The notes: generated by a model not told the origin, from the letters alone. A DNA stretch of 54,985 bases from Candidatus Thorarchaeota archaeon SMTZ1-45 (GCA_001563335.1 LRSL01000033.1:1-54985), one strand, 5' to 3'; shown: positions 9,339 through 25,089, counted from the first letter of the stretch. Made by a program: numbers and translations.

Positions 9339-9390
9339 AAACTGACTTGGTGATGTCTGAATAACTGTTGTTGTATTGAATTAAACGCAC

Positions 9391-10077
9391 CTATTCGGAC
9401 CTTTTTTCCTGATCAAATGATTTGTTTTCTTCTTCTTTTGCTTTCTTCTTTTTAGCTTCCTTCTCTTTTTCCTTCTTCGCTTTTTCAAGCGCTCTAAAAT
9501 ATGCAGTCATTTTATCGTCAAGTGTGATGATATGGTGTACATCAGAGAATATCGATTTCAGGACATGTTCAAAGCTAAAAAAGAACAGTAACAAGATAGT
9601 AAGGTAGAAAACAATCATTGCAAAGAACACGTAAAAAAGTAGTTCAAGTAGAGCAGTATTAGGACCAAAACTTACCAAAGCAAACGATACCCCTTCATAC
9701 CATACGATCTGGCTGATTGCAGTGGCAAGATAGCCAAACATTAATGCAGAGAGTCGAAGTACTCGCTTATAATTCAGAAATCGGTCTGTTTCAAACTCAG
9801 GGATTAAATGAATTCTGTTAAGGTATGGAATGAACTCCGTACGATACCAATTAATTCCAGGGAGAATTGCATAGAAAAGACCTGTTCCTGAGAGTAGGAT
9901 AGGAGTTAGTACACCGGGCCCAACACACCAGAAGAATAATCCTTCAAAGAAGCTAAGAGTAGATATGATGGCACATACAACAAGGTGCGCAAAAAAAACA
10001 TAACCTTGGTAGGAGTCGGGTTTGGATGGTTCTAGATTAGACCAATCGTATTCGTTTTGGCCATCTAATAGATCCAC
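9391..10077 (-). CDS. hypothetical membrane protein (about 4 TM) with Lys/Glu-rich C-terminal tail
   Basis: 228-aa ORF with hydrophobic segments and the tail EKAKKEKEKEAKKKKAKEEENK. Confidence 0.7.
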   Translation of the reverse strand: MDLLDGQNEYDWSNLEPSKPDSYQGYVFFAHLVVCAIISTLSFFEGLFFWCVGPGVLTPILLSGTGLFYAILPGINWYRTEFIPYLNRIHLIPEFETDRFLNYKRVLRLSALMFGYLATAISQIVWYEGVSFALVSFGPNTALLELLFYVFFAMIVFYLTILLLFFFSFEHVLKSIFSDVHHIITLDDKMTAYFRALEKAKKEKEKEAKKKKAKEEENKSFDQEKRSE

Positions 10078-10200: not shown

Positions 10201-10953
10201 CTATGTGAAGATGGCTGAGATACCACCAGTGGTTGTTTCAATAATGACGGTTAGTGTCTGTGATGCTGTGTCATAATCCGAGGATTCGTAGTGGTTCGAT
10301 GTAATCTGCGTCCAACCGGCTGCAGTAATATCAACACTACCAGTTGTAACAGCACATTCCACGCTACCGCCAACTCCACTTGGAACATCCACTACTACAC
10401 TAACTCCGCCAGTAGTAGTGTCAAGATTAAATGTAGCATTTCCAAGTAAGACCACGTCATCGGTCATCACTAGTGAAATTCCACCAGTTACTGTTGTGAG
10501 TGCAATATCACCAACATGTGCACCGTTGAGCAAGTTGACATTGATTCCTCCTGTAGAAACATCAACATCCAAAGTGTAGTTCACACCACTTCCAAGAGTG
10601 ATGTTCACACCAGCAGTAGTATAATCGAGCCGAATGGTATTGCTCGAGAATGTGACTGAGGGTGTACCATCTATTTCGAGTGTGGTATTCTGAACCTCGA
10701 TGTCAATATCGTAGAGTAGTGATGCATTATCAACGAATGTTATCAATATGCCGCCTGTAGCTAAATCAATATCTAAGTTCACTGTACCTGTGGTGGCTCC
10801 AACTTCTGCTTCGAAGGAGAAGTCAGTAGTAGCTAAATTCCAGTTAAACCAGTTAGTGCCGAAGTAGGATAAAGCTCCCACAGCAATTGCACCTACGATT
10901 ATAACTGCAAATATACACACAACCATACTTGTGTTTCTCTGATAATTACTCAT
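10201..10953 (-). CDS. membrane-anchored DUF4097/adhesin-like beta-strand repeat protein
   Basis: N-terminal TM followed by repeated (L/V)x(T/S)(T/S)GG(I/V)x(I/L/V) units. Confidence 0.75.
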   Translation of the reverse strand: MSNYQRNTSMVVCIFAVIIVGAIAVGALSYFGTNWFNWNLATTDFSFEAEVGATTGTVNLDIDLATGGILITFVDNASLLYDIDIEVQNTTLEIDGTPSVTFSSNTIRLDYTTAGVNITLGSGVNYTLDVDVSTGGINVNLLNGAHVGDIALTTVTGGISLVMTDDVVLLGNATFNLDTTTGGVSVVVDVPSGVGGSVECAVTTGSVDITAAGWTQITSNHYESSDYDTASQTLTVIIETTTGGISAIFT

Positions 10954-10956
10954 TGT

Positions 10957-11583
10957 TTATTCACCTTGTCTGTGAGACTGTAGAAAAGCGTGCCAATTCT
11001 TTCTCAAGTCTCGATATTGCGAATCTTCTTCCAGAGCGAAGCGACGCATGATTCGCGATGCATCGCCTCGTATTGAGGAGGGCAATTTATCAAGGCGCTC
11101 CTCATTCACAACAAGATTGCGAGAAGTTAGCTCATTCTCGCGATTTATCAACGCCGTCAGTAGTTCCACAGCCTCGCCAATCTGATCCTCTGGAATATCT
11201 ATACCATAGACTGAGAGGCTTTTAATTATGGATTTCAGACGCTTTGTTGTATCATCCCCAGTAGCCTGTATCATTTCACTGATACCCATCCTGTACTCGC
11301 GTGCAGAAGCACGATAGTACCGCTGAACAATACCAGTCTGGGTCTGTTCTGTTCGTTCTTCGAAGACAAGACCAACTTCTTTCAACTTCTGAATATGATG
11401 AAGTATAGTACCAGGATTTTTCCCAGTCACTTCTGAAAGCTGTTTTACTGTCATCGAGTCTTTCACGAGATAGTCAAACACTATCTTAGCTCGGGTTGGC
11501 TCCATGAGTAGCTTGATTAGATTCTTGTCTTCAATGACCTCCATGTCCTTGATTCGTTGTTTTTGTTTCTTGGAGCCGTTCAC
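10957..11583 (-). CDS. ArsR-like winged helix-turn-helix transcriptional regulator
   Basis: LMEPTRAKI...MTVKQLSEVTGKNPGTILHHIQKLKEVGLV...IVQRYYRA. Confidence 0.9.
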   Translation of the reverse strand: MNGSKKQKQRIKDMEVIEDKNLIKLLMEPTRAKIVFDYLVKDSMTVKQLSEVTGKNPGTILHHIQKLKEVGLVFEERTEQTQTGIVQRYYRASAREYRMGISEMIQATGDDTTKRLKSIIKSLSVYGIDIPEDQIGEAVELLTALINRENELTSRNLVVNEERLDKLPSSIRGDASRIMRRFALEEDSQYRDLRKNWHAFLQSHRQGE

Positions 11584-11585
11584 TG

Positions 11586-12536
11586 TTATAATCCTCCTAT
11601 AAAACTGGGACCAACTTCATCCTCACTATTCATTGGGATAAGATCATCATCATCTGCTGTGAGAATCATGTAGACTCTTGTGAGACCTATGGAAAGCGCA
11701 GGTAAGACTACGAATGCCAAGAGGAGGCTCATTATGACAGCATAGATTCCTAGTGGTACCAATGCAAGAATTTGAGTTGTAAAGAAAGGAATCGCCATTA
11801 TGAACAATGGTGAAGCAAGAACAACTATTAGCAATATATAAGAGAGCCAAGTGCCAAAGACACGGTCGAAATATTTGATACCCATTTGGATTGACTTCTT
11901 TGTTGCTTCAACAACAGAATAGCCATCGATAATTGCAGGGAACAGCATTGTCATGAGTCCAGTGCTCAATACAAACCAGACTATACCTAGTACAGAAATT
12001 AGTGGATTCATGATATTTGAAGACCCAACACCTATGAAAGCAACATTGAGAATTTGTTCTCCAAATAGAGTTACTGCTGCTAAGATCACTATCATGACTG
12101 GTCCCAGAATGAAAAGGAACAGCATAATTCCACCACCTGCCAGGGAGAAGAACTTCTTTCTGTACCAGGTAAAGACGCCCTCCGCAGAAGTTCCTTCACT
12201 CTCCACAATCTCTCTTGACATTCCAAAGAGTGCACCGCTAGCTACGAAGAATGGAGCAACAAATGGCAGCGCAATCAGGAAGATACCAGTTGCGATTGTT
12301 ATACCACCAGTTGTGAACCACGATTCCAGTGACTCAGCCCAGATTGTGAATGCTTGGAGCCCCCCAGGCGATATCACAATAGGAATGAAGATGAATGCAG
12401 CAACTATACCAATCAAGATGATTGTAACTAAGAAGACTCCAATAATCGCAAGCACATAGGAGATCACGTTTCTGAGTGCAAACCTAATGCTGATCTTCAG
12501 GTCTTCCACAATTGTTTGAAAGCTCGCTTTTTTCAT
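11586..12536 (-). CDS. hypothetical polytopic membrane protein (paralog of 12614..13534)
   Basis: About 6 TM helices. Shares D(L/M)KxS, GxxxGMS, AE..F..(Y/F)RxKFxSxAGxG, S.....YFDRV(F/Y)G and xVY with the neighbouring gene. Confidence 0.8.
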   Translation of the reverse strand: MKKASFQTIVEDLKISIRFALRNVISYVLAIIGVFLVTIILIGIVAAFIFIPIVISPGGLQAFTIWAESLESWFTTGGITIATGIFLIALPFVAPFFVASGALFGMSREIVESEGTSAEGVFTWYRKKFFSLAGGGIMLFLFILGPVMIVILAAVTLFGEQILNVAFIGVGSSNIMNPLISVLGIVWFVLSTGLMTMLFPAIIDGYSVVEATKKSIQMGIKYFDRVFGTWLSYILLIVVLASPLFIMAIPFFTTQILALVPLGIYAVIMSLLLAFVVLPALSIGLTRVYMILTADDDDLIPMNSEDEVGPSFIGGL

Positions 12537-12613: not shown

Positions 12614-13534
12614 CTACACGATGGGCATATCAACAACGCTCTGCGTTGCTATCTCTCCACCAGTGAGTTCTTGGTAGACCTTGACCCAGACGATCCTTAC
12701 CATTGGTAAGAACAGGAGAAGCCAGAGGAGCACCATAATCACAGTATAGAGACCAACACCAACAATAGCTGGGATGAATACCAGAGTGACTGGTGGAATG
12801 AAATCTGCCATAGCAAGAGCTGCTATGACAAGAGGACCGAAGGTGGCGGCTAGCAGAAGCACGATGGCTGTCAAGACTCCGTAGACACGATCAAAGTACC
12901 GGGTGGATAGAGAGAAAGAGTCCTTGAAAGCTTCCTGAACTCCCTTGCCACTGGCTACTGCAGGCCAGACCATTGAGGTCAAACCAGCAGTAATGTAAAC
13001 CCACACAAATGTGAAGGTCGTGAGGACATAGGTGGCTGGCGCGGTGATTGCGTAACCCATCGCATAGGAGGTTAGACCCCAGGCGATGGTGGGTGGTAGT
13101 ACGACAATAATTGTAAGAATTGCACCAGTGCCTGCAAAGGAGAGGAACTTGTGTCTGAAATAGGAGAATGCAAGCTCGGCCTTGGTTTCGCCCTTGGTGA
13201 CTAAGTCATGACTCATCCCATAGATAGAGCCGCTGACGACCAAGAATAATGAAACAAGTGGAATCAATACTAGGATACCAATTCCTCCAACAATGAGAGG
13301 ATTGACTGCAGCCCAATTAGCCAGAGCAGTCATTGTGGCTTCGGAGAATGGCGCGAGAACTACCCATGCTACAATGAGCACAGGGATTGCTACGATCCCA
13401 AGAAGGATCACCATGACAATCAACATGCCTAGATTCGCAAGGAAGTAACTTAGCATGCTCTTCCAAGCAAGTTTAAGGCTCGTCTTCATGTCGTCAAGAA
13501 TTGTACCGAAAGTTGTAGACATTGTATACACCAT
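12614..13534 (-). CDS. hypothetical polytopic membrane protein (paralog of 11586..12536)
   Basis: Same motifs and TM pattern as the adjacent gene. Confidence 0.8.
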   Translation of the reverse strand: MVYTMSTTFGTILDDMKTSLKLAWKSMLSYFLANLGMLIVMVILLGIVAIPVLIVAWVVLAPFSEATMTALANWAAVNPLIVGGIGILVLIPLVSLFLVVSGSIYGMSHDLVTKGETKAELAFSYFRHKFLSFAGTGAILTIIVVLPPTIAWGLTSYAMGYAITAPATYVLTTFTFVWVYITAGLTSMVWPAVASGKGVQEAFKDSFSLSTRYFDRVYGVLTAIVLLLAATFGPLVIAALAMADFIPPVTLVFIPAIVGVGLYTVIMVLLWLLLFLPMVRIVWVKVYQELTGGEIATQSVVDMPIV

Positions 13535-13666: not shown

Positions 13667-14587
13667 CTACATCTTTGCAGAATTGACCATCCCGATGAGT
13701 TTCGCATGTCTATAACTTGAGAAGTACTGGTGATGCCCGCTGATCAAGACTTTCACACTTGTCACATGCTCATTCTTCCTAATAGAGCGAACGATTTCAA
13801 TGAGTTCGGTGATATCATCAGCTACCAAAAGTGCGTAAATCACTGGTTCAGAAGCTGATATGTAAGTTTCTCTATGATGGATAGGATATTCCTTCTCTAG
13901 CATATCCGCGATTGTTGAATACTTAGCTGTTTTTTCATTCCAGAGAATCCGCACTATGAATGGCAGACTCGTGCCAGCTCCCAATTCAACCAAAGCAACA
14001 AAACGGAGTGCGTTATTCTCTTCAAACTCTCCAATCAGCCTTCTCACTCGTCGCGCAGTCAGTCCTGTCTTCTGTGCAATATCAACTATTGGAAGTCGCG
14101 GGTCCTCTAAGAGCGGTTCTAAGATGCGAAGATGAGTCTTGGTAAGGTTCATCTTTGCGCCCCAAGTTCCTATGATTGTATGTAATTCTGCACTGATAAC
14201 ACTATCAAGTGTTCGAAGGAACGACCCAAGCTCCTGTAATTCTTGTGGTCCATGGTATTCTGCCACAAGAGCATAGGTGCCATCAGTATAAGATGAGGCC
14301 GCCATAACATACTTGCTTGATCCAATTTCCTCAACCATCTCAACTTCATCTCTTGAACCATCAGTCGATAAGAGACCGAAGAGAAAACCTGTGCCAGTCA
14401 TTGCAGGAGACATGAAAATGGAATAACCAGAGATGATTCCATTTTCTTCCAGATTCAAAATACGACGACGAATCGCATTGGCTGAAATACCATACTTTCG
14501 TGAGAGCTCTTGGTAACTGAGTCTGCAATTTCGTTGTAAGTCAGTTAGTATGTTCTTGTCCATTTCATCCAAGATGTACACATCCAC
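13667..14587 (-). CDS. Lrp/AsnC family transcriptional regulator with two tandem HTH-RAM units
   Basis: LDEMDKNILTDLQRNCRLSYQELSR...GIISGY, and a second unit LTKTHLRILEPLLEDPRLPIVDIAQKTGLT. Confidence 0.85.
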   Translation of the reverse strand: MDVYILDEMDKNILTDLQRNCRLSYQELSRKYGISANAIRRRILNLEENGIISGYSIFMSPAMTGTGFLFGLLSTDGSRDEVEMVEEIGSSKYVMAASSYTDGTYALVAEYHGPQELQELGSFLRTLDSVISAELHTIIGTWGAKMNLTKTHLRILEPLLEDPRLPIVDIAQKTGLTARRVRRLIGEFEENNALRFVALVELGAGTSLPFIVRILWNEKTAKYSTIADMLEKEYPIHHRETYISASEPVIYALLVADDITELIEIVRSIRKNEHVTSVKVLISGHHQYFSSYRHAKLIGMVNSAKM

Positions 14588-14811: not shown

Positions 14812-15468
14812 ATGACTCGGAATCTCGAAGATTTGCATATACACTCCAACTACTCTGATGGAGTTTCTAGTGTTGGAGAGATTACTCAACGAGCTGCGTT
14901 TCTTAAACTAAAGACGATTGCTATTGCTGATCATTTTTGGCCATCATTGGGTTCTCGAAAGGGTGGAATAAACATCATCGAACAGAGACGTCATGAGATT
15001 GAAACTTGCAGAGATGACTATCCAGAACTGAAGATTCTCGATGTTGCAGAAGTTGACATTCAGTCAAATGGAGAGCTTGCACCTGTTGCTGGTGGGCTTG
15101 AGCAATTCGATCTAATCATAGGGTCGTTCCACTGGTTCACTGATTCCACAAGGTGGGTATCAGCTCTGGTTCAAGCATTGAGAAGGAAAGAGTTTCAGAT
15201 TCTCGGACACTGGGACGGCTATCTCTCCTCTTACAGAGAGGAGGATGGGAGAATTGCGGCGGAGGCGCTCGCGGAAGCAGGTGTCGCAATTGAGCTGAAT
15301 GGTAGATACTCAGTTGAGCATATTGGTTTTCTAGAACTAGCCAACGCGTATGGGTGTTCCTTCACACTTGGCAGTGATTCACATCATGTGAGCACAGTTG
15401 GAGATCTTGACTTCCAAGAGAAACTTGCAACAAGCATGAATCTTAATCTAATGAAAGTGAACCTTTAA
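14812..15468 (+). CDS. PHP domain phosphoesterase (YcdX/HisJ-like)
   Basis: Metal-binding motifs DLHIHSNYSDG, IADH, GSFH, ILGH, IELN and GSDSH. Confidence 0.9.
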   Translation: MTRNLEDLHIHSNYSDGVSSVGEITQRAAFLKLKTIAIADHFWPSLGSRKGGINIIEQRRHEIETCRDDYPELKILDVAEVDIQSNGELAPVAGGLEQFDLIIGSFHWFTDSTRWVSALVQALRRKEFQILGHWDGYLSSYREEDGRIAAEALAEAGVAIELNGRYSVEHIGFLELANAYGCSFTLGSDSHHVSTVGDLDFQEKLATSMNLNLMKVNL

Positions 15469-15548: not shown

Positions 15549-15968
15549 TTGATGGGTGACGAACTCGTTTTTCCATCGGACGAATGGATTAAGATGTACA
15601 TGGACCTCCTGAACAAGAATGACCGATATGAGGACGCTGCTAAAACTTGGGAGGGAGACTTTGTCTTTGAGATTACTGCAGATGGAGAGATTGTGACAGA
15701 ACCGATCAGGTTCTACATGGATCTTTACCATGGTAAGTGCAGGGCTGCAAGAATGGCTGGTCCTGATGACACAGCAGAGTTTACCTATTCAGGACCTTAC
15801 AAGAATTGGCGAGCCCTTTTCGATGGCAAGATTGACCCAATCAAGGGAATAATGGCTCGAAAATTCAAGCTTGATGGTGACATGGGCAAGGTCATGCGCT
15901 ACACAAAGGCGGCTCTAGAGCTTGTAGCCACAACAAGACTAGTTCCTACAAAATACTTGGATGAATAG
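15549..15968 (+). CDS. SCP2 sterol/lipid-binding domain protein
   Basis: FPSDEWI...W.GDF...GPYKNWRALFDGKIDPIKGIMARKFKLDGDM. Confidence 0.9.
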   Translation: MMGDELVFPSDEWIKMYMDLLNKNDRYEDAAKTWEGDFVFEITADGEIVTEPIRFYMDLYHGKCRAARMAGPDDTAEFTYSGPYKNWRALFDGKIDPIKGIMARKFKLDGDMGKVMRYTKAALELVATTRLVPTKYLDE

Positions 15969-17064
15969 CAACAAGACTGAATCAATCTCTGAATCATGTA
16001 GGAGCCCCACAATAATGTGGTGGAAAAGGAGCGGTTTAAAGAAAAGACCGGGACCAGGTTGCGCAGTCTGGGAAATCACTCTTGCTTGCAATCTAAAGTG
16101 TATTCATTGCGGTTCAGCTGCAGGTAAGGCACGTTCAGATGAGTTGTCAACAGAGGAAGCACTCCAGCTTTGTGAAGATCTCAAAAGCATTGGATGCAGA
16201 GGAGTAGCGCTCATGGGTGGTGAGCCCTTACTTAGAAAAGATTGGGTCACCATTTCTGAGAGAGTTCATGATTTGGACATGGATCTGTCAATAATAACCA
16301 ATGGATGGCTTGGTCAGAATGATGCCGTTACTCAACAACTAGTTGATCTATCACCAGAGTGTGTGACTGTGAGTCTCGATGGGGGAGAGTCTTCCATCCA
16401 TGATATGATTAGGGGTGTTGAAGGATCTTTTGAGCGTGCAGCAAAAGCCATTGACAGATATGCAGGTCTTGGACTTCCAACCTCCGTAATTACCACTGTA
16501 CATAAGTTGAATCTAAGGGAACTAACAAAGATACGAGATCTCTTGAGGGGGAAAGGAGTAGCATGGCAAATTCAAATGGCTACACCGCATGGAAGACTGG
16601 AACGTAAGCATGTGTTGTCCCAAGATGAGTTCTACTCAGTCGCACTGTTCATTGCAGCAACTAGGAAATTGTATTCTAAGCAACTTATGGTGGCTGGAGC
16701 TCATGATATGGGATACTTCTCCACAATTCTTGATGAGTTGCAGGTTATGTCGTGGCAAGGTTGTCAAGCTGGAATTGGTACACTAGGAATACAGAGCAAT
16801 GGAAACATCACAGGATGTTTAGCTCTGCCTGCGCAGTTCATTGAGGGGAATGTAAGGGAACGATCTCTAAATGAGATATGGTATGATAATGAGTCATTCA
16901 AATATTCACGTCGCGTAAAATTGTCGGACATGAAAGCGCACTGCACAACTTGTGAGTTCAAGGGAATCTGTAAGGGAGGGTGTTCTGCGGTTTCTGTAAC
17001 TATGGGGAAAGGACTCCATCAAGACCCATTCTGTGTGCGCCATATCGAACAATCGATGAAGTAG
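15961..17064 (+). CDS. radical SAM/SPASM domain protein, peptide/protein maturase-like (true start may be ATG at 16015)
   Basis: WEITLACNLKCIHCGS (CxxxCxxC), MGGEPL and VSLDG, plus the SPASM cysteines GCQAG...GC...CTTCEFKGICKGGC...FC. Confidence 0.9.
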   Translation: MNSNKTESISESCRSPTIMWWKRSGLKKRPGPGCAVWEITLACNLKCIHCGSAAGKARSDELSTEEALQLCEDLKSIGCRGVALMGGEPLLRKDWVTISERVHDLDMDLSIITNGWLGQNDAVTQQLVDLSPECVTVSLDGGESSIHDMIRGVEGSFERAAKAIDRYAGLGLPTSVITTVHKLNLRELTKIRDLLRGKGVAWQIQMATPHGRLERKHVLSQDEFYSVALFIAATRKLYSKQLMVAGAHDMGYFSTILDELQVMSWQGCQAGIGTLGIQSNGNITGCLALPAQFIEGNVRERSLNEIWYDNESFKYSRRVKLSDMKAHCTTCEFKGICKGGCSAVSVTMGKGLHQDPFCVRHIEQSMK

Positions 17065-17116
17065 CCAGAAGCAAGAATCAAAGAGCTTATTGCTAGTTTT
17101 TACTTAATATTCATGG

Positions 17117-17509
17117 GTGAAGGAGTTGAGATGGAGTGGAAGAGGAACAGTTGGATATGCATATCTCAAATTCCGCGATTTTCTACCAACAACTATGAAG
17201 ATGGTGGCTGATGAGTTTATTCGAATTCGGTTTCCTACAAGAAAGCAGTTAGCAGAGATTGAAGCTCTTGGCAAGTGCATAGGCTTAGATGGGAAGGAGA
17301 TTTATGCGGCAACTGGTTTTCCAATCAACAACGAATATTTACAGAAACGTAGATTGACTCCATTATCAGTGTGTATAATGGTTTTAGTCATCATAATCAT
17401 AGGCTTTGTAATCCTTGTTCTTACAGGATATTTTCCTAGACCTCCCGAAGTATATGGTGCTGGTACTCGTTACGGAAGTATAAAACCTAAAGATTTCATC
17501 GTAGACTAA
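17117..17509 (+). CDS. small single-pass membrane protein with C-terminal YxxGxxYG motif (paralog A)
   Basis: TM preceded by KRR, tail PEVYGAGTRYGSIKPKDF. Clear similarity to the next ORF. Confidence 0.75.
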   Translation: MKELRWSGRGTVGYAYLKFRDFLPTTMKMVADEFIRIRFPTRKQLAEIEALGKCIGLDGKEIYAATGFPINNEYLQKRRLTPLSVCIMVLVIIIIGFVILVLTGYFPRPPEVYGAGTRYGSIKPKDFIVD

Positions 17510-17529
17510 CTCACTCGGGGTGGTAAGAT

Positions 17530-17934
17530 TTGCTTGGAATAATTATGCACATGATTTGGGTTGACATAAACCGACTAGAGAGCTATCTTCCCATCAGACT
17601 TTATGATAGAATGCAGCAGATAACAGGTTATGTTGAACCTAGCAGACAACAGTTAACCAAGATTGAGTTACTAGGGAAAAATGTAGGGCTCGAGAAATCA
17701 GAAGTCTTGGCAGCACTGGATTCACATTTGAGCACCACGGGTATTGGGAGTAAATCTAGGATTTCTCTTTTTACTACAATAATCGTTATGATTGTCATAG
17801 CATTAGTAAGTGTCCTTCTTACTTGGTTCGTTGTAGATCCTGAGAGTTTTCCCGTACCAACATATGTTCCAGGTTCACTCTATGGAACCATATCTCCAAG
17901 AGACTTCAGCGCTCTTGACCCAGTGATAGCTTAG
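17530..17934 (+). CDS. small single-pass membrane protein with C-terminal YxxGxxYG motif (paralog B)
   Basis: TM preceded by KSR, tail PTYVPGSLYGTISPRDF. Clear similarity to the previous ORF. Confidence 0.75.
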   Translation: MLGIIMHMIWVDINRLESYLPIRLYDRMQQITGYVEPSRQQLTKIELLGKNVGLEKSEVLAALDSHLSTTGIGSKSRISLFTTIIVMIVIALVSVLLTWFVVDPESFPVPTYVPGSLYGTISPRDFSALDPVIA

Positions 17935-17937
17935 TTT

Positions 17938-19242
17938 GTGGTGAATGAATTATTGAAACTCAATATTGGCTGTGGTCACGAATACAAGAAAGGCTATGTC
18001 AATATTGATGCCTTCGATAGTTCAATTGCAGACAAGAAAATGTCAGCTCTAAATCTTGAGTTTGATGATGATTCATTTACTCAGGTTGAATGTGTACAAG
18101 TACTCGAACACCTTGGGGCTGCAAAGTCAATCTATGCATTGGCTGAAGTTTATCGTGTACTCAAGCCAGAAGGAGTCTTTATCATAGTAACTCCGGATTT
18201 AAGGAATTCATTCAAGATTTTTCTTAAAGGGAATGAGGAACAACGAAAACTAGTGATGAACTGGATATACGGACTAGACATTCCAGGCATGTCGCACAAA
18301 TATGGTTTCCCAGAGGAACTTCTAGAGAGAATGCTACAGGAAACAGGATTCTTTGATATTGATATTAAACGGATTAATAGCAAGTCAACACATCCCTCGC
18401 TTCAGGTAGTTTGTAAGAAGCCATTTTCAAGATGGCATCAGTTATTTACACATTTTCGGAAAAAGCTTGTACAGGGAGACTTGGTGGACCTACAGAACCA
18501 GATCGATGTGATTGATAAGGAAACCATACTGCAAGATATTTTGACAGCTGTTCTGAAGACTAATACCGCAAGGCAGGTTCTACAAATAACTTCAACAAGC
18601 AGTCCCAAGATCGGGCAGGTATTCATGGAGGAATATGTTGCAGAAAATCTAGTATCTGAGGATTATGTTCGGATTCATCTCGGAATACTAGAGGAACTAG
18701 CTCTTCTGGAATTTCCAAAGATGATGACCTATCTTTTTCGAGAAATGCCAGTGATACCTGGATGTCAATCTGAAACATTTGAAACGGTCAGATCGATGTG
18801 TGCTAAATCGGTCAAGAAACTTATCTCTGGGGAGAAAGAAGTCATCGATGAATTAAGAAATACATCAAAAAAGGTTGATATCGAAATCCAGACTATCATT
18901 TTCTCAAAGACTATGTTAAATTCAATCTCGCAGTATCATCAAGCCTTAGGAGCCAAGGCATTTAGCCAAAACAAGTTAGTTGAGGCAATGATTCAGTACA
19001 AGAATGCAGTTCGATTCAATCGTGACAATACATTGGCGTATTGGAATCTCGCACGATTACATGTTTTGAATAATCTGCAAGAAAAAGCTAGAGTGTGTTA
19101 CAGTACTACACACGATCTAGTTTCATTGATGCACCCAAAGGTTATGAAACCCCTGCTTAGAGAGATAGAAACTGAATTTGAACAAGCAATGAAGAGAAAT
19201 TGGAAACATATTGACCAACCAGTTTTGTCGCTACTGCGTTGA
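17938..19242 (+). CDS. class I SAM-dependent methyltransferase with C-terminal helical/TPR region
   Basis: LNIGCG, VNID, VLEHL and YRVLKPEG, with TPR-like AMIQYKNAVRFNRDNTLAYWNLARL. Confidence 0.85.
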   Translation: MVNELLKLNIGCGHEYKKGYVNIDAFDSSIADKKMSALNLEFDDDSFTQVECVQVLEHLGAAKSIYALAEVYRVLKPEGVFIIVTPDLRNSFKIFLKGNEEQRKLVMNWIYGLDIPGMSHKYGFPEELLERMLQETGFFDIDIKRINSKSTHPSLQVVCKKPFSRWHQLFTHFRKKLVQGDLVDLQNQIDVIDKETILQDILTAVLKTNTARQVLQITSTSSPKIGQVFMEEYVAENLVSEDYVRIHLGILEELALLEFPKMMTYLFREMPVIPGCQSETFETVRSMCAKSVKKLISGEKEVIDELRNTSKKVDIEIQTIIFSKTMLNSISQYHQALGAKAFSQNKLVEAMIQYKNAVRFNRDNTLAYWNLARLHVLNNLQEKARVCYSTTHDLVSLMHPKVMKPLLREIETEFEQAMKRNWKHIDQPVLSLLR

Positions 19243-19286: not shown

Positions 19287-20378
19287 ATGACTCTCCTTCA
19301 CACTGAACTCTGTGATATAATTGGAATCAAGCACCCCATACTTCAGGGAGGCATGGGACCATATAAGACTGAGGCACTAGCAATTGCAGTGGTTAATGCT
19401 GGAGCTCTAGGCGTTATCAGTTGTATAGGCATGGCTGCGACACTCATTCCTGAAGCAGCTCCAATTGATGCACAGAGATTATTTGGCTCAGACCCGCCAG
19501 CCATCATTCTACAGAAATCGATTGAAAAAGTCACAAAGGAAACTCGTTCATCTGGTGGAGTTTTTGGAGTAAATGTGCCTGTAGCTGCTGAATTCATCTT
19601 GGCATCAAAGATGTTTGTAGAACAGACAATTGAGTCCTGTAAGGCAGATTCAGACACTGAACGTTCATTGAGAGTTGTTGTGACGTCAGCTGGAAACCCA
19701 AAGCCATGGTCAGTCCTCAAAGATGAGGGTTTCATCTGGGTGCATGTAGTACCCTCTGTATATCACGCAAAGAAGGCTGAAGCAGCGGGTGCGGACATCA
19801 TTGTGGCATCGGGACACGAGGGAGGGGCGCATGTTTCATGGGATCCTGTCCATTCCATGGTGCTTGTTCCAGCAGTTGCTAAGGCTGTGAAAACTCCGGT
19901 AGTTGGAGCGGGTGGTTTTTGCGATGGATTAACCCTTGCTGCAGCTCTATGCTTGGGAGCTGTTGGCATTCAGATGGGTACACGTTTCATAGCAACCAAG
20001 GAGAGTGATTTTGAGCCAATGTGGAAACAGGCGATATTAAAGAGAGAAGAGCGTCAGACTCTCGTCGGACGAGGTCTCTTTGGACCAATGCGATTCTTGC
20101 GTAACAAGAGAGCTGAAGAGATTGTAGAACAGACCTTAGAGGATTTGCCAAACTTCTACCTAGGTGAGCCTCTAGACTCAAATGAGGTGATTCTGAAACT
20201 TGAACAGACAGGATTCGATGACCTTCTTGATGCAAAAGAGGATACTGCTCTGATGTTTGGAGGGGAGGTAGCAGGTCGAATTCAAGATCTACCCACTACA
20301 GCTGAGCTCATAGGAAGCATAGTTAGTGAGGCTTCAGAGGTGCTTGGTAGAGCACCAAAATTTGTGGTTAGTGGTTGA
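19287..20378 (+). CDS. nitronate monooxygenase / FabK-like flavoprotein
   Basis: PILQGGM, GHEGGAH, VVGAGG, GIQMGTRF and GEVAGRI. Confidence 0.9.
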   Translation: MTLLHTELCDIIGIKHPILQGGMGPYKTEALAIAVVNAGALGVISCIGMAATLIPEAAPIDAQRLFGSDPPAIILQKSIEKVTKETRSSGGVFGVNVPVAAEFILASKMFVEQTIESCKADSDTERSLRVVVTSAGNPKPWSVLKDEGFIWVHVVPSVYHAKKAEAAGADIIVASGHEGGAHVSWDPVHSMVLVPAVAKAVKTPVVGAGGFCDGLTLAAALCLGAVGIQMGTRFIATKESDFEPMWKQAILKREERQTLVGRGLFGPMRFLRNKRAEEIVEQTLEDLPNFYLGEPLDSNEVILKLEQTGFDDLLDAKEDTALMFGGEVAGRIQDLPTTAELIGSIVSEASEVLGRAPKFVVSG

Positions 20379-20454
20379 GAGTAGCCAGTGCGAGGAAATA
20401 AAGGGGCGAGATTCCTCCATATGATAGCACATTATGCTATGAGGAGAGATTGGA

Positions 20455-21636
20455 ATGGTCTGGTGGTTTTATGTTCCAAATATCGTGTTTGGGGAAGATG
20501 CCCTTACTGAACTTGAGCAGATTAGTGGAAAGAAAGCATTCATTGTAACTGATAGAGTAATCAATAGTCTTGGTCTAGCTGAGAAAGTCTGTCGGATATT
20601 GACGGAAAGACAATGGGAGGCGGCGATTTGGGATGGTGTGGAACCAGATCCAAAGGTTTCCACAGTCAAAGCTGCCGCTGAGGCAATCAAGATGTTCGGT
20701 GCGGATTGGATTATTGCAGTAGGTGGAGGAAGTGTCATGGACACAGCCAAAGCAGCATGGGTACTCTATGAGAAGCCAGATGTCGAACTACATGCTCTAA
20801 CACCATTTGATGAATTAGGTCTTCGTAAAAAAGCCAAGCTGATTTGCATACCAACAACTACGGGTACAGGTTCTGAAGCAACTAAAGCAATCGTTATTCG
20901 TGATGATGAAACGGGTAGAAAATTCGCAACCATAAATCCTGAATTGACACCAGATATAGCGATTTTAGATCCGGAATTTGTGGTTGGCCTTCCGAGGAAT
21001 CTCACAGCTTATACAGGTATGGATGCACTAACCCATGCAGTAGAAGGATATGTTTCTGTTTGGAAGAATGACTTCTCTGATGGTTGTTCACTTCAAGCAG
21101 TCAAGATGATTTTCGAGTGGCTCCCCAAGTCAGTTGATAATCTAACGGATTTAGAGAGTAGGGAGAAGATGCTAATTGCCGCATGTCTTGCAGGAATGGC
21201 ATTTGGTAATTCACAAGCTGCACTTGCTCACTCCCTAGGTCATAGTATGGGCTCAGTACTTCGAACTCATCACGGGATGTCTGTAGGAATGGCATTACCA
21301 TATACTATCGAGTTCAACTGTAGAGGTAAAGAGAATGAGGAAGCTGCGAAACAATACTCAGAGTTAGCAAGACTGATTGGAATTACAGGGAAAAAACCTG
21401 AAACTGTATCTCTGAAATTTGCTGGAGCTGTCCGAGAATTGATGAAGAAGATTGGTAGTCCTCAGAGTTTCAAGGAAGCTGGAGTTAAGAAGAAAGACTT
21501 CAACGCTGGACTAGAGAACATGGTTGATTTTGCCATGATGGATACAAGCCTGACGATGAACCCACGAAATATTGACAGTGAAGAGATTCGAAAGATGTAC
21601 AGATACATGTATGATGGAACAGTTATCGATTTCTAG
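20455..21636 (+). CDS. iron-containing alcohol dehydrogenase
   Basis: GGGSVMDTAK, PTTTGTGSE, GMDALTHAVEGY, AHSLGH and HG. Confidence 0.95.
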   Translation: MVWWFYVPNIVFGEDALTELEQISGKKAFIVTDRVINSLGLAEKVCRILTERQWEAAIWDGVEPDPKVSTVKAAAEAIKMFGADWIIAVGGGSVMDTAKAAWVLYEKPDVELHALTPFDELGLRKKAKLICIPTTTGTGSEATKAIVIRDDETGRKFATINPELTPDIAILDPEFVVGLPRNLTAYTGMDALTHAVEGYVSVWKNDFSDGCSLQAVKMIFEWLPKSVDNLTDLESREKMLIAACLAGMAFGNSQAALAHSLGHSMGSVLRTHHGMSVGMALPYTIEFNCRGKENEEAAKQYSELARLIGITGKKPETVSLKFAGAVRELMKKIGSPQSFKEAGVKKKDFNAGLENMVDFAMMDTSLTMNPRNIDSEEIRKMYRYMYDGTVIDF

Positions 21637-21639
21637 GGG

Positions 21640-23472
21640 ATGGTGCCAATGGTGGATGGTTATCGAGGAAAAATACTCAGGGTAGACCTGAGTGCAGGGT
21701 CAACATCTGTTACGTCAATCGATGAAGAATTGTTGAGAGGGTTTATTGGAGGAGCAGGACTGGGTGCTCGTTTGCTTTATGATATGATTGACAAAGACAC
21801 AGAACCTCTTGGTCCAGAGAATCCTCTATTGTATCTGACAGGTCCATTATGTGGCACTATGGCACCCACTGGTAGCAAGTCAACATTCTGCTCAAGGTCT
21901 CCAAAGACAGGTCTTTTCGGATATAGCACTGTGGGAGGACACTTAGGTGCAGACCTCAAGTTCGCTGGTTATGACGGAATCATATTCACTGGAGCTGCAA
22001 AGGAACCATCATATCTTCTTGTGGACAATTCAGATGTTGAAATTAGGAATGCCAAACATTTGTGGGGTATGGACACAATACAGGTTTGGGAGGAGCTGAA
22101 GAAAGAGACCGGTTACAAGAATGCGGGTATCGCTAGAATTGGTATTGCTGGAGAGAACCTTGTGAAGTATGCATGTATCATTGTAGATCACCATAGAGCT
22201 GCCGGGCGAACGGGACAGGGTGCAGTTATGGGGTCAAAGAAGCTGAAAGCAATAGTAATCAATGGAACTGATCGAAAGGTGCCTGTTGCGGATGAGAAAG
22301 GTCTCAGAGAATATGCCAATGAGCTTAATGAAGATAAGAAAGAAGACCCTACTTTCCGGATGTACTCTGACCTTGGAACAGCTGGCTTCACAGACATGGC
22401 TAGCATGATGTGGGGTTCATTGCCTGCTGGATACTACACGGTTCCTGATTTTGACACATACAATCTAAGCGGCACAACTGTCAGAGAAACTATCTTGGTG
22501 GGCAAATCAGCATGTTATCGATGTCCCATTGCATGCGGAAGAGTGATAGAGATTCCAGAAGGCAAGTACAAGATGGATAGGTATGCTGGACCTGAGCTTG
22601 AAGTAACTGGAACTATGGGTTCTCTTCTCCTCAATAATGATGTCGAATCAGTAGCTTATGCGAACAAGATACTCAACATGCTTGGAATTGATACGATTTC
22701 TGGAGGAAATACTATAGCGTTTGCCTACTATCTCTTCAAGGAAGGAAAGATAACTACGGAGGACCTTGATGGGATTACGCCAGAATGGGGTGATGTTGAT
22801 CCAGGAATAGCTCTCGCAGAGAAGATAGCCAAACGGGATGGTATCGGAAACATGTTGGCTGAGGGAGCCTTTGAGTTTGGAGAGAAGTTTGGAGTTTCTG
22901 ACCTAGCTGTTCAAGTCAATGGTCTTGAACTACCGCAGCACGACCCACGAGGTTTCTCAGGCCATGCCATTGGTTACGCAACATCACCTCGTGGTGCATG
23001 TCATATGAGTGCAGATATGTATAATGTCCAGATGGGACAACCCAATGAGGCTTTTAGAATTGAGAGTGAAGACAGATTCGCCAATGAGGCAGACTTGGTT
23101 GCAAGACTCCAAGATTTTCGTGCTCTGACAAACTCCGCTGTGATGTGCAATTTCTATCCTGCAAACGGAAACCAGTTATTGAAGCTCCTAAAACTAGCAA
23201 CTGGATGGGATATGGATATTGAAGAGTTAGTGAAGACAGGTGAGAGAATCTTCACCATGATGAGATTGCTTAACCTCAAGCTTGGTTATTACACAAAAAA
23301 GGAGGGTCTTCCATTGCTTGTGCTGAAACCGCTTGAGGGAGCCACAGAAGGTCATGTGCCTGATATCGAGGCACAATTGAATACATGGTATGAATACCGT
23401 GAATGGGACAGAAAGACTGGAAGACCACCCAAAGAAAAGCTTGAGGAACTAGGTCTAGGAGACCTCACCTAA
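21640..23472 (+). CDS. aor: tungsten aldehyde:ferredoxin oxidoreductase
   Basis: KILRVDL, RSPKTG, LKFAGYDG, AAGRTGQGAVMGSKKLKAI, CYRCPIAC, GPELE, GIDTIS, HDPRG and RGACH. Confidence 0.92.
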   Translation: MVPMVDGYRGKILRVDLSAGSTSVTSIDEELLRGFIGGAGLGARLLYDMIDKDTEPLGPENPLLYLTGPLCGTMAPTGSKSTFCSRSPKTGLFGYSTVGGHLGADLKFAGYDGIIFTGAAKEPSYLLVDNSDVEIRNAKHLWGMDTIQVWEELKKETGYKNAGIARIGIAGENLVKYACIIVDHHRAAGRTGQGAVMGSKKLKAIVINGTDRKVPVADEKGLREYANELNEDKKEDPTFRMYSDLGTAGFTDMASMMWGSLPAGYYTVPDFDTYNLSGTTVRETILVGKSACYRCPIACGRVIEIPEGKYKMDRYAGPELEVTGTMGSLLLNNDVESVAYANKILNMLGIDTISGGNTIAFAYYLFKEGKITTEDLDGITPEWGDVDPGIALAEKIAKRDGIGNMLAEGAFEFGEKFGVSDLAVQVNGLELPQHDPRGFSGHAIGYATSPRGACHMSADMYNVQMGQPNEAFRIESEDRFANEADLVARLQDFRALTNSAVMCNFYPANGNQLLKLLKLATGWDMDIEELVKTGERIFTMMRLLNLKLGYYTKKEGLPLLVLKPLEGATEGHVPDIEAQLNTWYEYREWDRKTGRPPKEKLEELGLGDLT

Positions 23473-24968
23473 GCACTAGCTTCTTCATATTAGGAAGATC
23501 CTCAACAATTTCCTTCAAGACATTGAAAAGAATTTCAACATCAATTATCCTGAGACGTTCATCAGGAGTATGAGGATTCTCCAGAGTAGGTCCTATTGAC
23601 ACCATTTGTATGCCAGGTATCTTTGATCCAATTATTCCGCACTCAAGACCTGCATGAATGGCCTCAACCTTGACCTCTCTTCCAGTCACATTTTCAAAAT
23701 GTTTACGTACAAATGAAAGAAACGGACTCTTTGGTTCGGGATTCCACCCAGGATATCCAGGTTTCTTTGTGATTTGCCATCCACTCAATTCAGCAAGATC
23801 CACAATACTATTTCTGAAGGCTTCAAGTTCTGAGTCTACACTACTCCTAGTAGAGAGCAGAACATAGACTTCAGATGCTCCAGTCTTGATTATAGCAACA
23901 TTGTTTGAAGTTTCCACAAGACCATCAACATTAGGGGAGAAACGGATGGGTCCATGAGGTAAAATGTTGATTGATTGAATTATCCGTTTTGATTCTTCAA
24001 GTGAAAATGCAGGTTCTGAAGATGATTTGTCCCAGTTGACTTGCATATCAGGCTCAAGTTCCTTGTAGTATGTTTTGAGGACCTTACGAACTCCTGTAAG
24101 TAACTCTTCAACCCTCTTGGATTTATTAGATTCCACTGCAAATTTGACTGTTGCTTCACGGGCAATAGCATTATGCTTGCTTCCTCCGTTCCAATTACAG
24201 AGATGCAAATTCATCTCAGCCACAAGTGAAGATAACAATCTAGCAGCCACTTTGTTTGAATTGGCTCGATGTTTGTGAATATCAACTCCTGAATGTCCAC
24301 CAAACAGACCTGAAACAGTCAGATTGAAGAATGTGATATCTCCTGTGACCTCTCTGAGTTCGATCTTTTTTGTGAGTTCCAGGTCACCTCCACCTGCGGA
24401 ACCTATAGTAATCACTTCAAGAGTTTCAGAGTCGATATTCATCATGAGCTTGCTCGTTATGCCCATGTTTTTAGGTTCAAGCGCAAAAGCGCCTACAAGA
24501 CCAGTTTCCTCATCAACCGTGATAAGAAGCTCTAGGGGACCATGTCGAACTTTTGGATCCAACATCAGAGCTAGACAAAGTGATACGCCAATCCCATTAT
24601 CTGCTCCAAGGGTAGTACCATCAGCATCCACCCATTCTCCATTTTCTTGTATACGAATCGGAATAGAGTTGTTTTCAAAATCAAAACCATCTGGTCTATC
24701 AGTTTCACACACCATATCCATATGACCCTGAAGGAGAAGAGGTTGAGCAGCCTCCATCCCCTTTGTTGGACCTTTTTTGATGAGCAGATTGCCAGCCTTA
24801 TCTTCAATCACTTCAATCTTCATTCCGAGTGATGTCGCACGTTCAGGAATCCAGCTCTTCAGCTTTTCTCGAATCTTGTCTTCTTTCTTTGAACCTCGTG
24901 GTGTCTTTGTGAAGACTTCTTCAAAAATCTCCCAAACAAGTTTAGGCTCCAAGCTCTCAAAGACCATT
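23465..24968 (-). CDS. pepD: aminoacyl-histidine dipeptidase (M20C peptidase)
   Basis: LQGHMDMVCE, TTLGADNGIG, VDEETG, NIDSE, GGHSG, IHAGLECG and HTPDE. The start is likely MVFESLEPK rather than position 25006. Confidence 0.9.
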
Positions 24969-25089
24969 AGAGAACCTCCGTGATCATTCATGACTTGATG
25001 CTCCACTATAAGGTTTTGTCAATGAACCAACAGATATTTCTTTCACCAGATTCATGAACTGTTGTTTCCTAATTGAGGAGTGACGGGTT

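Follow-up and report, generated by a model that had tools for sequence, protein, structure and literature searches.

A candidate RiPP-like cassette in Thorarchaeota with a radical SAM/SPASM enzyme from a sister clade of the splicease-type families

Introduction

The closest described relatives of the system analysed here are the PlpX-type spliceases, radical S-adenosylmethionine (SAM)/SPASM enzymes that act on ribosomally synthesised peptides that are modified after translation (RiPPs). They correspond to the family TIGR04103 ('nif11-class peptide radical SAM maturase 3'), carry no fused RiPP recognition element and process precursors of the Nif11/NHLP type at X-Tyr-Gly sites, from which a tyramine unit is excised. 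In the product of a splicease, the side chain of X is retained beside an alpha-keto amide, which acts as a warhead against serine and cysteine proteases (PMC9811515; PMC11414181). In the present work, we analysed a stretch of 54,985 nt from Candidatus Thorarchaeota archaeon SMTZ1-45 (GCA_001563335.1, LRSL01000033.1:1-54985; the whole stretch is hereafter called the window), in which the gene of a radical SAM/SPASM enzyme is followed by the genes of two small proteins and of a methyltransferase. Our reading, to which we give a rough probability of 0.42, is that these genes form a RiPP-like cassette whose enzyme belongs to a new sister family of the spliceases and which makes tethered, protease-inhibitor-like tails.

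A second neighbouring family, TIGR03913 ('GDL motif peptide-associated radical SAM/SPASM maturase'), comprises enzymes encoded beside peptides of the DUF1843 type; a literature search found no paper stating what TIGR03913 enzymes do. PqqE and MftC belong to the same superfamily and share the SPASM architecture; both modify a conserved Tyr in a small precursor, as is proposed here for the enzyme of the window.

Results

A conserved cassette of enzyme, small proteins and methyltransferase

The radical SAM/SPASM gene (15961..17064; open reading frame (ORF) of 367 aa) is followed on the same (+) strand by the genes of precursor A (17117..17509; 130 aa), precursor B (17530..17934; 134 aa) and a class I SAM-dependent methyltransferase (MT; 17938..19242). 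The intervening gaps of 52, 20 and 3 nt are those given in the first-pass annotation of this DNA, which had been made from the sequence of the window alone.

One genome per prokaryote species was scanned with an alignment of 15 enzymes, which returned 570 relatives; the best 80 of these gave 79 loci, at which ORFs of at least 40 aa were called and searched with the window proteins, the hidden Markov model (HMM) of the small proteins being iterated. Homologues of the small proteins lie beside the enzyme in 71 of the 79 loci, with one to five precursors per locus, and an MT orthologue in 56, so that the linkage noticed in the window recurs among orthologues. In 45 loci, the sequence extends for 3 kb or more to either side of the enzyme; a precursor is present in 41 of these, an MT in 39 and the two together in 36. 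When 715 larger ORFs were clustered all against all, no further family reached more than 8 loci; therefore, the conserved system consists of the enzyme, its precursors and usually the MT, without a dedicated protease or transporter. As in PlpX-type systems, the precursors are multi-copy, and as in TIGR03913 loci, small precursors adjoin the enzyme in tandem. Unlike the PlpX-type systems, the family has a dedicated MT-TPR protein, has no PlpY-like partner and is mainly archaeal.

The cassette occurs in Thorarchaeota, Promethearchaeota, Thermoplasmatota, Elusimicrobiota, Myxococcota/Thermodesulfobacteriota, Nitrospirota and DPANN. The closest named relatives of the window proteins come from Candidatus Thorarchaeota, in agreement with the Asgard origin that had been suggested. 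Within the genus, a clear orthologue (67-84% identity) is present in 8 of 24 other genomes, all of which maintain the order PHP, SCP2, radical SAM enzyme, two or three small proteins and MT. Across the Asgard phylum the distribution is patchy: the enzyme is found at E <= 1e-80 in 101 of 400 sampled genomes (about a quarter) and in 20 of 90 high-quality genomes; counted by genus, the figure is 20 of 85.

The Thermoplasmatota loci L037-L059 (e.g. L047, 4974-7101) encode two adjacent paralogous radical SAM/SPASM enzymes, which fall into two separate clades and both retain all 10 cluster cysteines. This arrangement suggests two modifications of the same peptides, or a division of labour on them.

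The enzyme family is a sister clade of the splicease-type families

The enzyme is a member of the radical SAM/SPASM superfamily. It carries the CxxxCxxC motif (C43, C47 and C50) and a seven-Cys SPASM domain (Cys 268, 286, 328, 331, 337, 341 and 358), all invariant in 15 sequences, and it scores above the Pfam cutoffs for Radical_SAM (PF04055; 87.6 bits, cutoff 29.5), SPASM (PF13186; 32.5 bits, cutoff 21.5) and Fer4_12. Like the PlpX-type enzymes, it has no fused RiPP recognition element. Since its orthologues begin at the equivalent of M19 (ATG at 16015), upstream of which stop codons occur in one orthologous locus, the true start is probably M19; the protein would then have 349 aa, the first 18 codons of the ORF not being translated. 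By sequence, the closest solved structure is PqqE (6c8v, E 2.6e-17).

In the NCBIfam ranking, TIGR04103 (209 bits) and TIGR03913 (205) come first, ahead of TIGR04053 (165), AhbD (158) and MftC (148), with PqqE at 98.9 bits, each of these scores lying below the cutoff of its model. TIGR04103 and TIGR03913 are the top two models in all 11 members examined (the window enzyme and 10 others from eight lineages), and they exceed the third model by 18-80 bits in the members tested; the TIGR04103 score of the 10 other members is 162-228 bits. A comparison with the heme and cofactor families had been suggested as a check, and the models concerned (AhbC/D, NirJ, PqqE and MftC) stay below their cutoffs and below the top two in 11 of 11 members. 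In addition, no heme or cofactor pathway gene recurs near the enzyme in the 79 loci. TIGR03913 enzymes are longer (474-516 aa) than the enzyme of the window.

A maximum-likelihood tree was built from 34 of 90 family representatives and 10 references, the named references being drawn from a plasmid collection. The enzyme family is monophyletic (SH-aLRT 99) and stands beside a clade of TIGR04103, TIGR03913 and the Tropicibacter enzyme (SH-aLRT 99); the two together are split from TIGR04053, MftC and PqqE (SH-aLRT 90), while an Agathobacter enzyme joins the family weakly (81). The first-pass annotation had placed the enzyme inside the splicease clade: the two families it had named are indeed the nearest ones, whereas membership does not hold, the scores being far below the cutoffs. 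As judged from sequence comparison, the family is a sister clade of the splicease-type families and a member of neither TIGR04103 nor TIGR03913, and it is previously uncurated.

At least 90% conservation within the family is found at 77 positions, of which 29 are general, 20 mixed, 14 shared with the splicease clade only and 14 confined to the family. The 14 positions shared with the splicease clade include G51, S52, G55 and R58, which follow the cluster motif, as well as Q203, Q205 and W265, which are located in the predicted substrate interface described below. The signatures pointed out in the first-pass annotation (GS-AG-R behind CxxxCxxC, and the beginning of the SPASM domain) were found in five references of the clade and in none of four outgroups. 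The signature residues shared with PlpX-type enzymes include the WQIQ strand.

Among the reference loci, a Tropicibacter oceani plasmid (2189-5880) encodes a 540-aa radical SAM enzyme of the splicease-type clade directly upstream of trypsin-like and M23 peptidases.

The small proteins have the anatomy of RiPP precursors

Precursors A and B are paralogs of about 130 aa, with 34% identity over 94 residues (E 3e-15), and both tails fit the motif Y-x-x-G-x-x-Y-G-[ST]-I-x-P-[KR]-D-F, as had been noticed at first sight. The tripeptides VYG (17450-17458), RYG (17468-17476) and LYG (17878-17886), read from the DNA, map exactly where they had been placed. Both paralogs thus have X-Tyr-Gly (RYG in A, LYG in B), while VYG is not conserved as a motif site.

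Specifically, precursor A has a leader helix at about residues 40-65 (17234-17311), a hydrophobic segment at residues 85-103 (17369-17425) and a core from Y113 to F127 (17453-17497), in which the variable R118 precedes the invariant Y119. In precursor B, the leader region covers residues 33-64 (17626-17721), the hydrophobic segment residues 84-102 (17779-17835) and the core Y112-F126 (17863-17907), with the variable L117 before the invariant Y118; all these elements lie on the + strand. The same anatomy is seen throughout the family: an N-terminal helix (GxxLGLxxxE), a variable middle and a 15-residue core near the C-terminus, from which it is separated by a median of 4 residues. In precursor B numbering, G49, G53, L54 and E58 of the leader are at least 90% conserved; Y112, Y118 and F126 of the core are invariant in 78 sequences, and G115 and D125 are at least 90% conserved.

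Translated in all six frames, the window contains a strict form of the tail motif, G..Y.[STA][IVLF]...[DE][FLI], at two places only, 17462-17497 and 17872-17907, one in each paralog. In the related loci, 91 of 127 precursor ORFs carry it, while none of the remaining ORFs of 45-190 aa does (0 of 2416). When 1.84 billion representative proteins were searched with the profile, 179 clusters were obtained at E <= 0.001, 91 of them at E <= 1e-10. Some clusters have one leader followed by three to five tandem core units, others two or three whole leader-plus-core units. A search of the genome for further copies of A or B found none, the third-best match having E 0.26.

The middle of the protein varies with lineage. 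A hydrophobic 19-mer is present in 98 of 127 precursor ORFs, and the Asgard forms have a strongly hydrophobic segment. In Elusimicrobiota, the segment ends in a lipobox-like site at about residue 37 (13 of 17 precursors) and is followed by a long linker, while the precursors of Thermoplasmatales are peptides of 57-67 aa in tandem copies, with no transmembrane (TM) segment. Three precursors, from Myxococcota, Syntrophia and Nitrospirota, carry a Kunitz_BPTI domain between the signal segment and the core (55.7, 51.7 and 19.9 bits; cutoff 21). In four loci from Thermoplasmata and DPANN (L093, L097, L099 and L101), the precursors are divergent and have several hydrophobic segments; a short C-terminal x-Tyr-[Asn/Asp]-[Val/Ala]-Tyr ending replaces the usual core, and an MT is present in 3 of the 4.

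Neither window precursor belongs to a Pfam or NCBIfam family, and a Pfam search with 10 diverse precursors at E <= 0.1 gave nothing but Kunitz and weak helix-turn-helix (HTH)/membrane noise. A Nif11-like leader was considered and discarded, as hhalign of the precursor profile against the Nostoc Nif11 precursor gave a probability of 0.1%. Accordingly, the precursors differ from those of the PlpX-type spliceases in being unrelated to Nif11, in having no Nif11/NHLP-leader precursor adjacent and in placing a membrane or signal segment between leader and core; they are alike in having a C-terminal X-Tyr-(Gly) core with varying X, the LYG core of the Nostoc reference precursor being likewise close to the C-terminus. 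The precursor HMM detected no precursor-like ORF in six reference loci (Nostoc, two of Azospirillum, Aureibacter, Agathobacter and Tropicibacter), and an ESM Atlas search with precursor B gave no usable lead.

The DUF1843 peptides of the TIGR03913 loci are also unrelated to the window precursors (no match), and none is encoded at the window locus. Those of Azospirillum and Aureibacter have an x-Tyr-[Gly/Ala/Met] site, which is N-terminal in DUF1843 whereas it is C-terminal in the window family. The locus on an Aureibacter tunicatorum plasmid (1707-4477) comprises three DUF1843 peptides, with an N-terminal x-Tyr followed by Gly, Ala or Met, a TIGR03913-like radical SAM enzyme and an unrelated 187-aa class I methyltransferase. 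This is the one TIGR03913 locus which, like the window family, carries a methyltransferase; as a homologue of the window MT it was rejected (blastp E 0.9).

In conclusion, the small proteins have RiPP-precursor anatomy and, together with the enzyme, agree with the generic criteria for a RiPP precursor and its maturase; very probably, they are the substrates of the enzyme.

A fixed frame with one variable residue before the invariant Tyr

By aligning 131 cores from the 79 loci, we observed that the Tyr is invariant, while the Gly that the X-Tyr-Gly motif of the first-pass annotation placed after it is not: this position holds Gly in 53 cores, Ser in 40, Tyr in 10, Ala in 9 and Phe in 5. Among 150 representatives sampled independently at 50% identity, 119 have a core (152 instances in total), and Gly follows Tyr in 96 of 152. 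The residue is fixed by lineage, varying within only 6 of 37 multi-copy loci, and it tracks the enzyme clades. The pocket residues of the enzyme are invariant across clades whose substrates carry Gly, Ser or Tyr/Phe after the Tyr, which suggests one chemistry for the entire enzyme family.

The residue X before the Tyr behaves differently. In 117 of the 131 cores it is R (37), L (34), Y (19), K (14) or F (13), and no other core position varies between the copies of every multi-copy locus, as X does (37 of 37). In the independent sample, X is one of R, K, L, F and Y in 104 of the 152 instances, D in 12 and W in 9. In 31 of 35 loci no two copies share the same X; shuffling gives 21.9 +/- 2.4 such loci, and 0 of 5000 shuffles reach 31, a contrast that the test overstates, the genomes being related rather than independent. 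A pairing of one basic and one hydrophobic X in the same locus was also considered and set aside, since it is found in 25 of 35 loci against 20.3 after shuffling (277 of 5000 shuffles as high), which is weakly above chance. Throughout the genus, precursor A retains a basic X and precursor B a hydrophobic one. The other conserved core positions, counted from the Tyr, are Y at -6, G at -3, S/T at +2 (109 of 131), I/V at +3 (113 of 131), D at +7 and F at +8.

The variation pattern fits X as a specificity residue, and a fixed frame with a varied X next to an invariant Tyr is, by analogy, the X-Tyr logic of the spliceotides. Microviridins likewise combine a conserved scaffold with one hypervariable specificity residue.

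Predicted complex of enzyme and precursor

A complex was predicted for enzyme residues 19-367 and precursor B, each with its own alignment. The ipSAE, which is the model's own confidence, was 0.83, compared with 0.01 for the best control; the mark used for ipSAE was reached by 58 of 80 solved complexes and by 2 of 110 mismatched pairs, counts that apply here only approximately because we supplied our own alignments. Contacts agreed between runs by at least 78%, and the pLDDT of the partner was at least 58.

The predicted interface comprises residues 33-64 (leader) and 112-126 (core) of precursor B and excludes the hydrophobic segment. In the model, the leader is placed on enzyme residues 185-189 and helix 222-237, while the core would contact residues adjoining the GGE motif, the WQIQ strand (Q203 and Q205), G246-H248 and the start of the SPASM domain (W265-276 and 286-288). 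In the splicease models of the Piel group, the leader or the PlpY helix docks on the enzyme and the core lies in the active site (PMC11414181); the predicted complex agrees with these models, docking of a leader or partner-protein helix being a likeness between the two systems. Since peptide-bound radical SAM/SPASM structures exist in the PDB (e.g. the family of 5v1q), part of the ipSAE confidence may reflect likeness to them. Within this scope, the complex model supports the binding of both leader and core by the enzyme.

The methyltransferase is a specific partner of the cassette

The MT scores 32.6 bits for Methyltransf_11 (cutoff 21.2). The methyltransferase half of the domain assignment made at first pass is therefore confirmed, while the TPR half lies just under the threshold (TPR_11, 24.2 bits; cutoff 26.8). 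An AlphaFold2 (AF2) model (pLDDT 94.3, pTM 0.88) has a class I domain at about residues 1-165 and helices over 165-418, and G11, G13 and D24 are invariant in 44 MT sequences. Foldseek returned 199 PDB matches at E <= 0.001 for the model, all of the generic class I methyltransferase kind (best E 1.2e-6), a list dominated by the MT domain; a sequence search against solved structures gave weak generic matches only, with a best E of 0.049. As modelled, the protein is a class I SAM-dependent methyltransferase fused to an all-helical, TPR-like C-terminal half. With orthologue E values from 1e-196 to 1e-25, it is a specific partner of the cassette.

Six full-flank loci have no MT. Y at -6 is present in 0 of 7 cores from MT-negative loci versus 60 of 75 from MT-positive ones, and G at -3 in 2 of 7 versus 65 of 75. 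These counts, small and from few lineages, give a lead that the MT may act on or read the upstream Y-x-x-G half of the core.

Neighbouring genes

Directly upstream of the enzyme, an SCP2-domain protein (15549..15968, + strand; Pfam SCP2, 49.8 bits) overlaps the start of the enzyme ORF, and a PHP-domain protein (14812..15468, + strand; Pfam PHP, 39.8 bits) precedes it. The two genes adjoin the enzyme in 7 of the 79 loci, all from Thorarchaeota; they are lineage-limited neighbours outside the conserved core. In one locus (L025), a second PHP and SCP2 pair follows the MT (8450-9411).

A Lrp/AsnC-type protein with two HTH domains (13667..14587, - strand; Pfam HTH_24 and HTH_AsnC-type) is divergent from the PHP gene, the two being separated by a 224-nt intergenic region. 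Homologues are found in 7 Thorarchaeota loci, and the protein is a possible regulator of the operon. Further away, 11586-12536 and 12614-13534 (both on the - strand) encode tandem paralogous polytopic membrane proteins of 316 and 306 aa, for which no Pfam family was found at E <= 1e-5; an ArsR-type HTH gene (10957-11583) and a LiaF-like gene (10201-10953) come after them on the same strand.

Directly 3' of the MT, genes of a nitronate monooxygenase-like protein, an iron alcohol dehydrogenase and an aldehyde:ferredoxin oxidoreductase (19287-23472, + strand) are followed by an M20 peptidase on the opposite strand (23465-25006); these downstream genes probably belong to unrelated metabolism. A known defence system was considered and rejected: PADLOC gave one generic viperin-type radical SAM match (64 bits), and the other five proteins had no match.

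Discussion

The first-pass annotation had proposed a RiPP-like, Tyr-directed system acting on membrane-anchored proteins. Our data agree with it in kind, while it was too specific on family membership and on X-Tyr-Gly. In the mechanism that we propose, the enzyme would recognise each small protein through the N-terminal helix GxxLGLxxxE, and the core Y-x-x-G-[ST]-X-Y-[G/S/A]-[ST]-[IV]-x-x-x-D-F would enter the active site with the protein still cytoplasmic. A radical modification would then take place at the invariant Tyr, which we consider the likely site. Splicease-type excision of a tyramine unit appears to be the most likely single reaction, although we put it forward tentatively and at less than an even chance. 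The MT would add a tailoring methyl, perhaps in the upstream Y-x-x-G half of the core. Afterwards, the hydrophobic segment would anchor the product in the membrane, while in bacteria it would serve as a signal or lipoprotein peptide, to be removed along with the leader helix, and the modified tail would probably be displayed outside the cell.

The likely function of such a tail would be to inhibit proteases as a substrate mimic in which X is the specificity (P1) residue, a role whose chance we put close to even, on its lower side. Kunitz domains, which are protease inhibitors, are fused to three precursors of the family and by analogy would point independently to proteases. The maturation of the microviridin/graspetide and Kunitz inhibitors is unrelated to that of the window family (ATP-grasp enzymes in the former, disulfides only in the latter), for which inhibition is a proposal.

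Several observations weigh against this reading. The enzyme scores below the cutoff of every NCBIfam model, with less than a third of the cutoff for TIGR04103 (209 versus 725 bits) and 205 versus 592 (591.75) bits for TIGR03913, and its identity to PlpX-type enzymes is about 33-34%. On the tree, the family forms a separate clade outside, not inside, the reference splicease clade, which was represented by only 5 references (1 of them TIGR04103), with AhbD and NirJ left out. Of the 14 family-only positions, 8 (I177, H248 and L287 among them) lie in the predicted interface; therefore, the pocket differs from that of the reference clade. The described spliceases act at X-Y-G, whereas the window family often replaces the Gly, which follows the Tyr in only 53 of 131 cores: cores of the Lokiarchaeia type have Ser and those of Elusimicrobiota Tyr or Phe. 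The splicease systems covered by the literature that we read have no methyltransferase component. With regard to function, X can also be Asp (12 of 152), Trp (9) or other residues, the relatedness of the genomes inflates the shuffle test on X, and the Kunitz fusion is confined to 3 loci. The tail-outside topology is one that we infer, and Lokiarchaeia-type tails end in Lys-rich stretches, which favour a cytoplasmic location. Finally, the complex prediction provides the model's own confidence and no coordinates, so that no atom can be assigned to face SAM, and the many conserved core positions would suit a crosslink as well.

This last possibility is the strongest of the alternatives, though we give it less than an even chance. 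Cassette and substrates would be the same, and an intramolecular crosslink at the invariant Tyr, without tyramine excision, would yield a small rigid macrocycle, for instance by joining the Tyr to the Ser/Thr at +2 in a three-residue cyclophane, or to some other conserved residue of the core through a C-C or C-O bond. Most characterised radical SAM/SPASM peptide maturases (e.g. PqqE, MftC, WgkB and StsB) do form crosslinks; the core has conserved positions besides the Tyr at +2, +3, +7 and +8, most lineages do without Gly after the Tyr, and eight family-specific residues line the predicted pocket. Moreover, a macrocyclic substrate mimic could use X as P1 in the way of the microviridin-type inhibitors. 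As the X pattern would also suit such a mimic, it speaks for a role in inhibition more strongly than for splicing as the chemistry. On the other hand, the nearest characterised relatives by both HMM and tree are spliceases, the WgkB and StsB families score 70-90 bits lower, and the hypervariable residue beside an invariant Tyr copies the X-Tyr logic of spliceotides.

It is improbable that the same cassette performs another single-residue radical change, such as epimerisation, beta-hydroxylation, dehydrogenation, or C-methylation together with the MT. The enzyme falls in no characterised family, and radical SAM/SPASM enzymes at about 33% identity often differ in reaction; in addition, the MT is tightly linked (39 of 45 full-flank loci) and its presence tracks the Y-x-x-G half of the core. 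Nevertheless, no specific evidence favours any one of these reactions, and an invariant Tyr with a variable neighbour is better explained by splicing or by a crosslink.

That the small proteins serve as scaffolds from which a redox cofactor is derived, as with PQQ and mycofactocin, or for a protein-derived quinone, and are not themselves the end products, we regard as very improbable. The Tyr-directed enzymes PqqE (98.9 bits) and MftC (147.6 bits) do appear in the HMM list; however, they score below cutoff and are outgroups on the tree, and the PqqD/MftB chaperone and downstream enzymes that they need are absent at the window-family loci, where no pqq or mft partner gene and no further conserved gene is found. 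Their precursors are single and invariant, whereas those of the window family are multi-copy with a varied residue, and membrane, lipoprotein and Kunitz modules would be superfluous for a cofactor scaffold. Least probable of all is that the small proteins are membrane partners of an enzyme acting on a lipid, heme or other small molecule: the overlapping SCP2-domain gene and the AhbD/NirJ-like scores (158 bits for AhbD) would fit this, but the SCP2 and PHP genes lie beside the enzyme at no more than 7 of the 79 loci, the heme families score below the peptide-maturase families in 11 of 11 members, TM-free peptide and multi-core versions exist, and the complex model puts the conserved core in the enzyme.

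Returning to the reading of a spliceotide-like cassette, its furthest-reaching form, which we hold as a more speculative possibility, is that the cassette represents a new RiPP class and the first spliceotide-like system in archaea. Here the leader would form part of a signal-anchor or of a lipoprotein signal peptide; a single export step would both remove or bury it and expose on the cell surface a tail that is spliced (alpha-ketoamide) or otherwise modified at the Tyr. Paralog tails would differ only in the specificity residue (Arg and Leu here), and Asgard archaea, Thermoplasmatota and Elusimicrobiota would each possess tethered protease inhibitors as a set. Another possibility is an undescribed Tyr-directed radical reaction carried out by the sister-clade enzyme. 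Our literature search found no description of the cassette, a search that did not cover the principal survey of splicease types, reportedly that of Scott et al. 2022 in Chem. According to two other papers, the survey found spliceotide clusters in bacterial and archaeal genomes (PMC11626197) and 939 splicease systems have been predicted (PMC10533398); therefore, the enzyme family may already figure there among the predicted types.

In conclusion, no curated family exists for the enzyme or for the precursor. What spliceotides are in their native form, and what they do in nature, is still unknown (PMC9811515), and if the tails are modified as proposed, the cassette would be an archaeal, membrane-tethered relative of these systems. 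It is a small system of two to three genes, with TM-free peptide versions, and its pattern of one variable residue in a fixed frame could serve protein engineering or inhibitor design. For the organisms themselves, it would bear on how protein-degrading sediment archaea handle extracellular proteases.

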